Positions 37,903-40,933 of a stretch of DNA of 40,933 nucleotides are shown here, one piece after another. The DNA is from a virus (lineage: Duplodnaviria; Heunggongvirae; Uroviricota; Caudoviricetes): IMG/VR virus record IMGVR_UViG_2563366852_000006, positions 1 to 40,933 of that record. One strand, given 5' to 3'. The position numbers and the translations under genes are program-made. Position 1 is the stretch's first letter, and each line of letters opens with the position of its first letter. The notes under the pieces were generated by a model that was not told the origin of the DNA, searched no databases, and saw only the letters and a list, made by a program, of their open reading frames with translations.

Positions 37903-39003
37903 ATGCATCGTATAGACACGAAAACCGCGCAGAAGGATAAGTTCGGCGCGGGTAAGAACGGTTTTACCCGTGGTAACCCCCAGACCGGCACACCTGCCAC
38001 CGATCTGGATGATGACTACTTTGACATGTTGCAGGAGGAACTTTGCAGCGTGGTGGAGGCTTCCGGTGCCAGCCTGGAGAAGGGGCGGCACAACCAGCTA
38101 CTTACCGCGCTTCGCGCGCTGCTGTTAAGCCGCAAGAATCCGTTTGGTGATATCAAATCGGATGGCACGGTGAAAACGGCTCTCGAAAATCTTGGTTTAG
38201 AAAGATGTGATCAGGACACTAACGAAACACGCATTTGGTCACCAGACAAAAAATCTTATGTTTTTGTGCAGAATGATGGATGGGGGGCATATTCAATAAA
38301 TCCCCAAGCAGGGACTATTGCACTGCAATTATCATCTGGCGGTACAGGTGCAAAAGATGCTGCCAGCGCGCGTAGTAATCTTGGTCTGGGAGATGTGGCA
38401 ACGGAGAACACAGTACCTCTGTCTAAGGGGGGAACTGGCGGGACTTCTCTGGCAGAAGCGCGTAGTAACCTTGGCGTCAATCGTTTAGTACAAGGCTTAG
38501 TTGACACATACATTACTTCACAAAGCGATAACTATCGGCTGTTTGTGAATGATAGTGGTGCATGGGGCGTACTTAACAATATCGGAACGCCAATGGCTCT
38601 AGCGCTTAGTCAGGGCGGAACCGGCGCGACCACAGCTGCTGACGCACGAGCAAATTTAGGGCTTGGCTCAGCAGCAACAGCAAACTTGGGAAATGGGGAT
38701 AATCAGGTTCCGACAATGGCTAATTTCACATCAGGTCCTGGCTGGGTGAAATTTCCTGACGGCACCATCATGCAGTTTGGTACGAACATTTCAGGCTCTG
38801 CTGGCTACCCAACTGCTGTTAATTTCCCGATACCTTTTACCGATGATTATCGCGTCGCATGTTCTTTCGATACGCCAACCAGTGCAGAAGACTGCCCGGC
38901 ATTCTCGACAAGTAAGATAAATAACTATGGTTTTTATCTCGCGTCATCGCGTCAGGGGGCTGTCAAAGGAGCTGGTGCCAACTGGATAGCAATAGGAAGA
39001 TAA
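37903..39003 (+). CDS. Tail fibre protein: constant N-terminal part fused to the currently expressed variable C-terminal part
   Basis: Conserved N-terminus and repeated GGTGA...AR(S/A)NLGLG fibre-repeat motifs; a recombination site lies inside the gene at 38181-38205. Confidence 0.8.
38181..38205. other. gix/hix-like crossover site (left inverted repeat of the invertible segment) inside the tail-fibre gene
   Basis: TCTCGAAAATC-TT-GGTTTAGAAAGA resembles the hix/gix consensus (..AAAACC-NN-GGTTTT..) and is an imperfect inverted repeat of 40499-40523. Confidence 0.5.
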
Positions 39004-39005
39004 AA

Positions 39006-39443
39006 ATGAAATATTTATACGACGCAGTAACTAACGCATTTTATCCATTAGCAATGCAGGCAGACTATGAGGCGGCAGGGATGTGGCCCGAAAAAGGCGT
39101 GGAAGTTGATGAAGAGACTTTTGCTGCATTTCAGAAGCCACCGGAGGGAAAAATGAGGATTGCGGGTGATGATGGTTATCCCGTATGGAGTGATATTCCG
39201 CCACTGGCACCTGAAGAACTGATAAAGATGGCAGAATACGAGCGTCAGCGGCGCATAGATACTGCCAATGAGCACATGAATAACAGGCAATGGCCAGGTA
39301 AAGCAGCTATTGGTCGTCTGAAAGGTGAGGAACTGGCGCAATATAATTTGTGGCTGGATTATCTGGACGCACTGGAGCTGGTCGATACTTCCAGTGCGCC
39401 AGATATTGAATGGCCTACGCCTCCGGCAGTTCAGGCCAGATGA
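39006..39443 (+). CDS. Tail fibre assembly protein (U-type)
   Basis: Family-typical N-terminus (MKYLYDAVTNAFYP) and C-terminus (LWLDYLDALELVDTSSAPDIEWPTPP). Confidence 0.8.
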   Translation: MKYLYDAVTNAFYPLAMQADYEAAGMWPEKGVEVDEETFAAFQKPPEGKMRIAGDDGYPVWSDIPPLAPEELIKMAEYERQRRIDTANEHMNNRQWPGKAAIGRLKGEELAQYNLWLDYLDALELVDTSSAPDIEWPTPPAVQAR

Positions 39444-40017
39444 TATCCGGCGCGGTGCTGGTATCTGTTACCGTCACCGCGTCAATGTAATCCAGCACGG
39501 CGTTAAGTCGGGTTGTTTCTGCCTGCGTCAACTTCCGTCCGGCCTGCAATTTCAGTTGAATCAGACTAATGGAAGCCATTGCAGTATCAATCAGTGACTG
39601 ACGTTGTGCTTCTGCCGCGTCTACTGCGGCGCTATGCTGTGCCTCGGTATCCGTCACCCATTTCTCACCATCCCATTTATCGTATGGCGTTAACGGGGCG
39701 ATAGTGGTTGTATTATCAGGGTAATCACCCGGAACTGTGATTTCTTTTGATTCTCCTGTTTCGGTGCTAAAGACGATTTCACCGCGATGGTCTGGCACAT
39801 ATTCCCATGAGTTAAAATCTGCAGATCGGCAGATTGCATAACCAGCTTTGTATGCGCCTGGGGCATCTAAACAGGAATATGCCGGAATGCCGACACCAAT
39901 AGCAAGATATTCAGTTGAAGCTGAAATATATTCCCGACTCATGACATCAAAGTTATAAACAGTAATTTCTCCTGCCATAGTGGCAATTAATTCACTGTTT
40001 AATTCTGCGTTATTCAT
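39415..40017 (-). CDS. Alternative tail fibre assembly protein (U'-type) on the opposite strand
   Basis: C-terminus LNAVLDYIDAVTVTDTSTAPDIIWPELPEA; converges on and overlaps the plus-strand assembly gene by about 29 nt. Confidence 0.75.
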   Translation of the reverse strand: MNNAELNSELIATMAGEITVYNFDVMSREYISASTEYLAIGVGIPAYSCLDAPGAYKAGYAICRSADFNSWEYVPDHRGEIVFSTETGESKEITVPGDYPDNTTTIAPLTPYDKWDGEKWVTDTEAQHSAAVDAAEAQRQSLIDTAMASISLIQLKLQAGRKLTQAETTRLNAVLDYIDAVTVTDTSTAPDIIWPELPEA

Positions 40018-40511
40018 TATGCAGCCCTCACAATATAGTTAAAAGCGACATTTCGTGGGCGTGTTTCATTCGCACCTGCAGGTTTAGTCGTTGCCGCAAC
40101 AACACCACCCTCTGTAATAGCCTGGTTGGGAATTGGGTAATTATCGAAGTCAATGGCCGGAGACAGGGGCGTGATTTGTTTTAAAATCGTGGTGCCTGTA
40201 AAACTTTCCAGAGTCTGGTCGTTAGTTCGTGAAGTCCAGATTCCCCAATAGTGGTTATGACTGACAATCGCACCGTCCTGAAGCGTTAATAATCCCCTTC
40301 CGTTATCCACTCCACGTCCGTCATCCCAGCCACGAATAAACTCACCGCGTAAATCAGGCAATTTATTTGTCGGGTAAGCCTTTGCCAGTTCCGGGTATTC
40401 TTCAGCAGAAAAAGCCGCACCATTGCATTTCAGCCAGCCTGTCGGCGGAGTGGCGGAAGGCCACGGAACAGGCACACCAACAGGTAATGCAGAGCCTTCT
40501 CCCAAACCAAC
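40017..40511 (-). CDS. Alternative tail-fibre variable C-terminal segment (Sv'-like), silent in this orientation
   Basis: Minus-strand ORF running from the right-hand recombination site to the U' gene; the NVGLGE reading frame at the site matches NLGLE in the fibre gene, so inversion would fuse it in frame. It has no start of its own; the track's Met at 40550 is rejected. Confidence 0.65.
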   Translation of the reverse strand, partial: VGLGEGSALPVGVPVPWPSATPPTGWLKCNGAAFSAEEYPELAKAYPTNKLPDLRGEFIRGWDDGRGVDNGRGLLTLQDGAIVSHNHYWGIWTSRTNDQTLESFTGTTILKQITPLSPAIDFDNYPIPNQAITEGGVVAATTKPAGANETRPRNVAFNYIVRAA

Positions 40512-40523
40512 GTTTATGAAAAT
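40499..40523. other. gix/hix-like crossover site (right inverted repeat) just upstream of gin
   Basis: Reverse complement ATTTTCATAAACG-TT-GGTTTGGGAG shares the AAA..TTGGTTT core with the site at 38181-38205. Confidence 0.5.
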
Positions 40524-40576
40524 GCAGAAATAACGAGCAAATGGCATCATTCCTGCTTTTGTCAGGGAGATCTACC

Positions 40577-40933
40577 ATGCTTATTGGCTATGTACGTGTG
40601 TCAACAAATGACCAGAACACAGATCTACAGCGTAATGCGCTGAACTGTGCAGGATGCGAGCTGATTTTTGAAGACAAGATAAGCGGTACAAAGTCTGAAA
40701 GGCCGGGACTGAAAAAACTGCTCAGGACATTATCGGAAGGTGACACTCTGGTTGTCTGGAAGCTGGATCGGCTGGGGCGTAGTATGCGGCATCTGGTCAT
40801 TCTGGTTGAGGAGTTGCGCGAACGTGGCGTTAATTTTCGCAGCCTAACGGATGCTATTGATATCAGCACGTCGATGGGGCGTTTTTTCTTTTATGTGATG
40901 GGGGGCTTGGCTGAAATTGAGTTTCAGGATTAA
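40577..40933 (+). CDS. gin: Serine recombinase DNA invertase (Gin/Hin/Pin/Cin family), 3' end truncated by the window
   Basis: MLIGYVRVSTNDQNTDLQRNAL ... GDTLVVWKLDRLGRSMRHLV ... SLTDAIDISTSMGRFFFYVMGGLAEIE is almost identical to Mu Gin as I recall it; catalytic Ser in VRVST; GGGAGA RBS upstream. Confidence 0.9.
   Translation: MLIGYVRVSTNDQNTDLQRNALNCAGCELIFEDKISGTKSERPGLKKLLRTLSEGDTLVVWKLDRLGRSMRHLVILVEELRERGVNFRSLTDAIDISTSMGRFFFYVMGGLAEIEFQD

Follow-up and report, generated by a model that had tools for sequence, protein, structure and literature searches.

At the right end of a 40.9-kb window of tailed-phage DNA (positions 1-40,933 of IMG/VR virus record IMGVR_UViG_2563366852_000006, the whole stretch that we analyzed), we observed a tail-fiber gene and its assembly gene facing an alternative fiber C terminus with an assembly gene of its own, all of them beside a truncated gene for a serine invertase of the Din family (Gin/Cin/Pin/Hin). 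Gene families were assigned by Pfam profile matches, and the coordinates of the features are collected in Table 1. An earlier note on this DNA had placed the first fiber and assembly genes on the plus strand and the alternative pair on the minus strand, and the map of open reading frames (ORFs) and the Pfam matches agree with it; the two convergent assembly genes overlap by 29 nucleotides. The note had also taken the region for a Gin-controlled segment like the G segment of phage Mu. A Din-family invertible fiber cassette is indeed present, but protein identities, together with a right crossover site that is identical at 26 of 26 positions to that of e14 from Escherichia coli K-12 and of all relatives examined, place it with the e14/Pin type. 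Because a complete invertase, with its full helix E and helix-turn-helix (HTH) domain, is absent, the locus is a remnant of a Din-family switch and not a functional member of the family.

Table 1. Features of the invertible tail-fiber locus; positions are those of the window unless a contig is named
Feature	Positions	Strand	Remarks
YmfQ/Mu-gp48-like baseplate wedge gene	37315-37899	+	Pfam Phage_Mu_Gp48, 2e-26; directly 5' of the fiber gene
Fiber gene, 366 aa	37903-39003	+	Gp53-like_C domain at its end
Sc, constant N-terminal 97 codons of the fiber gene	37903-38193	+	Outside the invertible segment
Left crossover site (pixL-like, degenerate)	38180-38205		CTCTCGAAAATC TT GGTTTAGAAAGA; 26-mer
Invertible segment between crossover centers	38194-40508		2315 bp
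Sv ("N module"), variable fiber C terminus now expressed	38194-39003	+	Pfam Gp53-like_C, 8e-11
Assembly gene of the expressed tip, 145 aa	39006-39443	+	Pfam Caudo_TAP, 3e-33
Assembly gene of the silent cassette, TfaE-like, 200 aa	39415-40017	-	Pfam Caudo_TAP, 2e-32
Sv', silent alternative fiber C terminus with tail Collar domain	40017-40508	-	Pfam Collar, 8e-16
Right crossover site (pixR)	40497-40522		TTCTCCCAAACC AA CGTTTATGAAAA; 26-mer
Truncated pin pseudogene (serine invertase)	40577-40933	+	Pfam Resolvase, N-terminal domain only
Putative homologue of the recombinational enhancer	40595-40666		Nucleotides 19-90 of the invertase gene; 69/72 identical to e14 pinE
Predicted inverted junctions			CTCTCGAAAATC-TT-GGTTTGGGAGAA and TCTTTCTAAACC-AA-CGTTTATGAAAA
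Second dead pin, contig L038 (GCA_034204555.1)	3028-3193
Second dead pin, contig L043 (ERZ24910042)	5466-5631

The crossover sites and the expressed tip

The segment is delimited by two inverted 26-bp sites, which the earlier note had recognized correctly apart from coordinates that were 1-2 nucleotides off. Measured against the Din-site search pattern TTCTCNNAAACCWWSGTTTNNGARAR, with expectations taken from shuffled windows, the right site shows 0 mismatches (0 such sites are expected in 100 shuffles) and the left site shows 4. These two sites are the only places in the window with at most 4 mismatches, where ≈0.07 would be expected per shuffled window, and a scan of the segment for further 26-mers with at most 5 mismatches to the pattern returned none. 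The central dinucleotides TT and AA are complementary, as is needed for inversion, and, in the left site, TT supplies the second and third bases of the Leu97 codon of the fiber gene.

Inversion of the segment in silico joins Sc in frame to the minus-strand ORF, in line with the in-frame swap of the fiber C terminus proposed in the earlier note. The predicted fiber of 260 residues is 98.8% identical over its full length to WP_000554659.1 of E. coli 98207, a strain in which the collar-domain cassette occupies the expressed position in the ON orientation. The silent ORF itself (177 codons; 40017-40550, minus strand) crosses the right site and begins at an ATG at 40550 in the pin-proximal flank (MMPFARYFCIFINVGL...), as does stfE of e14. 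Inversion would fuse this leader to the gp53-like tip to give an ORF of 283 residues, the counterpart of e14 StfE2, which is reported to block adsorption of phage T2 (PMC12529663). In the inverted relative L038, an ORF of 283 residues is called at the corresponding place.

Homology to e14-type relatives stops exactly at the left site (38198) and picks up again at 39264, inside the assembly gene. Because of this break and resumption, the stretch in between, which comprises the tip now expressed and the 5' half of the chaperone gene, is taken as a foreign module joined at the crossover site. This block specific to the window (38199-39263) is rare: of 5426 complete E. coli genomes only 3 have it, as do two IMG/VR contigs, and an exact search with the 24-mer at its start gave 0 matches in metagenome contigs and GTDB genomes, the only matches being two IMG/VR contigs.

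The left site differs by five substitutions from e14 pixL (CTCTCGAAAACC TT GGTTTGGGAGAA; 21/26 identical). The e14 segment, of 1797 bp, is flanked by the 16-bp inverted repeat TTGGTTTGGGAGAAGG (PMC12529663; PMC4272514), and this repeat, perfect in e14, is reduced to 11/16 in the window. With 4 mismatches to the pattern, as against 0-2 in the other members with a truncated pin, the window has the most degenerate left site of all such members examined that keep both sites. At positions 3-2 of its outer half-site we find TC in place of CC. In assays of the Gin catalytic domain only CC, CG, GG, and TG are tolerated at these positions, and TC is not tolerated by the native domain (PMC3616721). The AAAATC variant of the left outer half-site, combined with a canonical inner half, also occurs in eight IMG/VR contigs, none of which carries the N module; seven of them have no invertase or second site in the stretch fetched, some of these stretches being short, and the eighth (L022) encodes a divergent full-length invertase that is 52% identical to PinE.

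The fiber tip contains three repeats of the motif GGTG..A..AR.NLG(L/V) (38340-38680), and the crossover site itself codes for ENLGL. The sequence coding for NLGLG in the tip repeats resembles a crossover half-site, giving a 13-nucleotide inverted repeat (38381-38393 and 40498-40510). A shufflon-like system with multiple sites at these repeats was considered and rejected because the 13-nucleotide repeat spans one half-site only and the segment has no further full site. The motif common to tip and site may perhaps offer a route by which new tips are captured at the site.

The truncated invertase and its enhancer interval

The invertase ORF opens at 40577 with the canonical MLIGYVRVST, and the catalytic Ser9 is kept, the stretch MLIGYVRVS(9)T being common to the window protein, PinE, Gin, and Cin. 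Aligned with PinE and Gin and with two further relatives, the protein of the window tracks Pin as far as residue 115, after which it has three foreign codons (F-Q-D) and an in-frame TAA at 40931-40933. The Pfam Resolvase match (8e-40) accordingly covers profile positions 2-124 of 145, and there is no match to HTH_7. Some 70 C-terminal residues are gone, comprising the distal half of helix E and the whole HTH DNA-binding domain. In the Din invertases, this domain recognizes the crossover sites. In Hin, it also bears the Fis contacts that are required for inversion by the wild-type enzyme (PMC3798978). Because the domain responsible for site recognition and for the Fis contacts is gone, the 118-residue fragment should be unable to catalyze inversion, and no second invertase was found encoded anywhere in the window.

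The earlier note held that the switch is controlled by its own Gin-like invertase, and it named a truncation beyond the window as a finding that would speak against this. A self-contained switch of this kind, with an invertase gene that runs off the end of the window, would fit the start codon, the catalytic Ser9, the 92% identity of the catalytic domain to that of PinE, and the fact that the window ends at the invertase gene. A truncation is in fact present, and it lies inside the window: the match to intact pinE extends only to 40920, before the three non-Pin codons and the stop. The last 13 nucleotides match a pseudogene junction in E. coli FACU 2024, annotated in RefSeq as "recombinase family protein, incomplete, missing C-terminus" and abutting a fragment of an S24 peptidase. 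In all, 19 complete E. coli genomes have this junction, each time beside a gene for an SDH-family protease, dinI, and prfC, and the invertase gene is annotated as a pseudogene in them. In addition, Logan contig SRR639974_59 (L032), which is 100% identical to the last 10,031 bases of the window (30903-40933), runs past the TAA into an S24 repressor fragment, the SDH protease gene, dinI, and prfC, with a Resolvase gene call of 118 residues; SRR5714063 likewise yields contigs that match the window. The idea that the window end hides a full-length invertase is rejected on these grounds, and we give a self-contained switch almost no credence.

The 5' part of the gene may retain its regulatory sequence. 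We used the P1 record as the source of the enhancer position and of the cix sites for comparison; in that record, the Cin enhancer is annotated at nucleotides 19-90 of cin. The earlier note had looked for the 5' part of gin and an enhancer beyond the window, and the homologous interval is found within it. The interval starts 85 bp from the center of the right site, and the Hin enhancer lies ≈100 bp from hix (PMC3798978). A scan with the 15-mer Fis motif yielded two G-N13-C candidates in the interval (at nucleotides 22 and 71), with centers 49 bp apart, which is not decisive. The interval may act as an enhancer, although its conservation could reflect coding constraint alone.

The truncation itself probably arose as a deletion of ≈0.4 kb between direct repeats of 11-12 nucleotides, by microhomology or slippage, because comparison with E. 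coli UTME-7 indicates that such a repeat flanked the deleted stretch. In UTME-7 (L015, about 2501-2530), CTGAAATGGAG-TTTCAGGATTAA lies ≈180 bp downstream of a different, full-length recombinase gene, and the same 11-12 nucleotides (CTGAAATGGAG) also occur in pin codons 112-115 (junction 40909-40933). Truncation by the action of an invertase at a quasi-site, for which the candidate is a 26-mer centered on the junction (40907-40932; 13/20 to the consensus), was set aside in favor of the microhomology deletion.

Two further features of the fragment concern its distal part. Codon 106 (40892-40894) encodes Tyr where PinE, Gin, and Hin have His. It is the exact counterpart of Hin H107Y, the mutation described as the strongest of those that hyperactivate the enzyme independently of Fis (PMC4513852, PMC3798978). 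The Tyr is present in all truncated alleles examined, and His is found in the two nearest full-length alleles, in e14 PinE, and in TW14425 Pin. Relative to the nearest full-length pinE (strain E9), the fragment has 10 nucleotide differences, 5 synonymous and 5 non-synonymous, and every one of them falls in codons 90-115 (40844-40921), with none in codons 1-89. This looks as if recombination had brought in a patch from a more divergent allele, and not like decay that followed the truncation.

These features bear on whether the 118-residue fragment might be retained because it does something in its own right; it could, for instance, poison other Din invertases in the cell as a dominant-negative partner and thereby freeze all such switches. 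None of the copies examined has a disrupted ORF, not even one that carries an in-frame insertion of 6 nucleotides, and the Tyr at the Hin H107Y position would be tetramer-stabilizing. Divergence among the copies (0.3-2.3%) is nevertheless too low to show purifying selection, the differences from the nearest full-length allele have the look of a recombination patch, half of helix E is missing, and relatives with the same fragment have flipped, as described below, which argues against freezing. We consider such a function very improbable.

Orientation of the segment in the lineage and its relatives

All contigs of the window's own type (≈8, namely L037 and five similar contigs, L040, and L042, and equivalently L032 and L034) hold the segment in the present orientation. 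In e14, 33% of deposited genomes are inverted (PMC12529663). If the window's segment flipped as e14 does, eight independent samples would all be parental with P ≈0.04, although the samples are related and the support is weak. An exact-pattern search of IMG/VR for the predicted inverted junction TCTTTCTAAACCAACGTTTATGAAAA gave 0 matches, and this search is blind to the inverted example L038, which has a 1-nucleotide variant (CATTT) and was found via its chaperone protein.

Related loci have lost still more. In seven sister contigs with an identical 366-residue fiber, the chaperone gene is followed directly by dinI and prfC, and the second assembly gene, Sv', and pin are deleted. Strain 33-6 retains an even more reduced remnant at the same locus. 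Elsewhere, the N module adjoins an invertase gene that starts with ATA and contains a frameshift (L012, L013), or it has no invertase beside it at all (A41). The pattern is one of decay toward a fixed fiber. A pinE mutant of K-12 is locked (PMC12529663).

The explanation that we favor runs as follows. The locus is the right end of an e14/SfV-type prophage at prfC that carries an e14-type P segment, with the constant Sc outside the segment and two convergent cassettes of tip and chaperone inside it. In the intact design, a Fis-bound enhancer near the start of the invertase gene itself activates the serine invertase, which cuts the central dinucleotides of the two inverted 26-bp sites, and rotation of the segment fuses the other tip in frame to Sc. 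Here, the ≈0.4-kb deletion has inactivated the invertase gene, so that the element should be unable to flip itself, and the left site was altered as the foreign tip module recombined in, whereas the right site and the enhancer interval are intact. The collar-domain cassette would then be a silent relic heading for deletion, and any residual flipping would depend on a Din-family invertase supplied by a different prophage in the host cell. On balance, we judge it somewhat more probable than not that the switch is effectively locked in this lineage with the gp53-like tip expressed.

Several observations weigh against a locked switch, the first being that orphaned segments have turned in relatives. 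Between FACU 2024 and 98207/CAVP746, which share the truncated-pin junction of the window, a segment of 1848 bp is 100% identical and inverted precisely between the sites, with flanks that are also 100% identical (892 and 607 bp). Between APEC E19025 and APEC O78, again with the same junction, 1803 bp are inverted at 99.0% identity. The parsimonious reading is a single deletion followed by inversions, which would therefore call for an invertase acting in trans. By a places-per-record count of pin-like copies, used as a proxy for intact Din invertases, 15 of the 19 truncated-pin genomes have at least one further copy (one each in 98207 and CAVP746, none detectable in FACU 2024), and pin-like sequence is present in 2208 of 5426 E. 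coli genomes.

A third inverted pair involves the N module itself. A search with the exact 145-residue chaperone led to a second phage type with a dead pin, whose remnant ends after ≈93 nucleotides, just past the enhancer interval. Within this type, the N-module segment is inverted between L043, where N is expressed, and L038, where it is silent, and the N inner half-site GGTTTAGAAAGA can therefore be recombined. At positions 3-2, the outer half-sites of L038 read CC and TG, both tolerated by Gin, and those of L043 and of the window read TC. The window, moreover, keeps all the cis elements needed for inversion in trans. Two of the supports for locking also have limits of their own: the census of ≈8 contigs is small, its contigs are interrelated, and assemblies report the majority orientation only; and the TC assay used an activated Gin catalytic domain fused to a zinc finger with both halves substituted, and so concerned neither Pin nor a single half-site.

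These observations are the case for an orphan but working switch, in which a Din invertase of another prophage would flip the segment in trans at a useful rate and produce two fiber types. Gin, Cin, Pin, and Hin complement one another. A precedent exists as well, since PinQ, whose gene lies in the Qin prophage, acts in trans to invert the segment of e14 (PMC12529663), and the intact right site and enhancer region of the window would suit such an arrangement, as would the two independent whole-segment inversions among prophages with an identical truncated pin and the third pair with a different dead pin and the same N module. It has to be set against the left site, the most degenerate in the lineage with its TC at positions 3-2, against the single orientation seen in every contig of this exact lineage and the deletion of the silent cassette in the sister lineage, and against K-12, which is locked without pinE despite its chromosomal pinQ and pinR (PMC12529663). 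We regard an orphan but working switch as possible though doubtful, and we retain the locked switch as the preferred reading.

The same evidence qualifies what may be read from the anatomy. The earlier note concluded that the locus implies two receptor specificities and a heterogeneous population, which does not follow with a degraded left site, lineage contigs in one orientation, and a sister lineage that has deleted the silent cassette. To assign two host ranges and heterogeneity from anatomy alone would be wrong here. The lesson for annotation is that an invertible host-range switch of textbook appearance can be non-autonomous, and the locus offers a small, clean example of decay: a module was replaced at the crossover site, the invertase was lost, and in a sister lineage the silent cassette then disappeared as well.

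Loss of the cis-encoded invertase beside such segments has occurred independently three times, by the deletion at codon 115, by a deletion at about codon 31, and by loss of the start codon with a frameshift (L012/L013). Both sites and the enhancer interval are kept in all three cases, and in two of the three dead-pin lineages both orientations are found among near-identical prophages. Cassettes without an invertase might thus be "riders," a recurrent and selected state and not mere decay, although we think this unlikely. If it were so, one resident Din invertase would set the fiber state of several prophages, forming a control network across prophages that might extend to anti-phage products like StfE2. 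The window would then be one such rider, with a degraded left site that tunes or ends its responsiveness.

Prophage context and comparison with known systems

The remainder of the window encodes an integrase, an S24 repressor, terminase, capsid, and sheath proteins, and Mu-like baseplate proteins, and from this gene set it looks like a whole prophage. With its start near the tyrosine integrase gene (386-1609) and its last base in the TAA that closes the truncated pin, the window has the look of a provirus call cut back to gene boundaries; what remains of the prophage extends farther to the right, through the S24 fragment, SDH protease, and DinI, to its true end beside prfC. Other prophages at the prfC locus (L001, L003-L007, and L026-L031) have the same truncated pin and a conserved right end (pin fragment, S24 fragment, SDH protease, and DinI), and their fiber cassettes upstream are highly mosaic, with at least five different tip/chaperone modules. 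In APEC O78, an IS2 lies between the right site and pin, and in Z1323CEC0019, lambda-like head and tail genes abut the pin fragment. The G+C content falls from 58% in the baseplate genes (34227-37899) and 55% in Sc to 48-49% in both fiber cassettes and the pin fragment (38194-40920), which fits a switch region assembled as a mosaic by horizontal exchange.

Searches of phage and E. coli genome collections returned thousands of e14-type loci (ymfQ, stfP, tfaE, and pinE), as well as phages of the SfI/SfII/SfIV/SfV type. By sequence comparison, the locus is an e14 P-segment/Pin system and not a Mu G/Gin system. Sc is 98% identical to residues 1-99 of StfP, and identities to e14 reach 97% for YmfQ, 86.5% for TfaE, and 92% for Pin over residues 1-115; e14 TfaP is 73% identical to the C-terminal half of the 145-residue assembly protein of the window. 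Gene order and orientation are alike (ymfQ-stfP-tfaP/tfaE-stfE/pinE), and the crossover falls in the same codon context (ENLGL). The e14 segment differs in several respects, however. PinE has 184 residues and the window invertase is cut at codon 115; the tip in the window is a rare, 270-residue gp53-like module in a segment of 2315 bp as against 1797 bp; and the window prophage appears complete and is located at prfC, whereas e14 is at icd. Inversion of the e14 segment has been established experimentally (PMC12529663, PMC4272514). The action of PinQ on e14 is the precedent for an invertase encoded elsewhere, which would be the only way in which the window segment could still flip, with the difference that e14 has a working invertase of its own and the window has none and a degraded left site.

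Phage Mu shares the architecture and the class of mechanism, with a constant Sc, two convergent cassettes of tip and chaperone, 26-bp inverted sites, and an invertase gene just outside the segment; the enhancer of Mu lies in the 5' end of that gene, where the window has its putative enhancer interval. It is nonetheless a distant relative: S is 34% identical over 68 residues, gp48 30%, and Gin 78%, and no significant match to Mu U, U', or S' was found. The gix sites of Mu (TTATCCAAAACC TC GGTTTACAGGAA) differ from those of the window in the center and in the half-sites, and its gin is intact. Identity with the Mu G segment was rejected on these protein identities and site sequences. The C segment of P1 belongs to the same family, with Cin 83% identical over residues 1-115, but it spans 4.2 kb, and its invertase is intact and lies on the other side of the segment.

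Set beside these systems, the locus belongs to a class whose mechanism is fully known, and RefSeq already lists its truncated allele as a pseudogene. All that is mildly new is that the invertase has been lost repeatedly while the sites and the enhancer interval stayed in place, a pattern that hints at riders controlled in trans. Orphaned segments of related prophages are still flipped, presumably by paralogous invertases of other prophages, and such flipping across prophages fits the recent evidence on PinQ and e14 and leaves the known mechanism unchanged.

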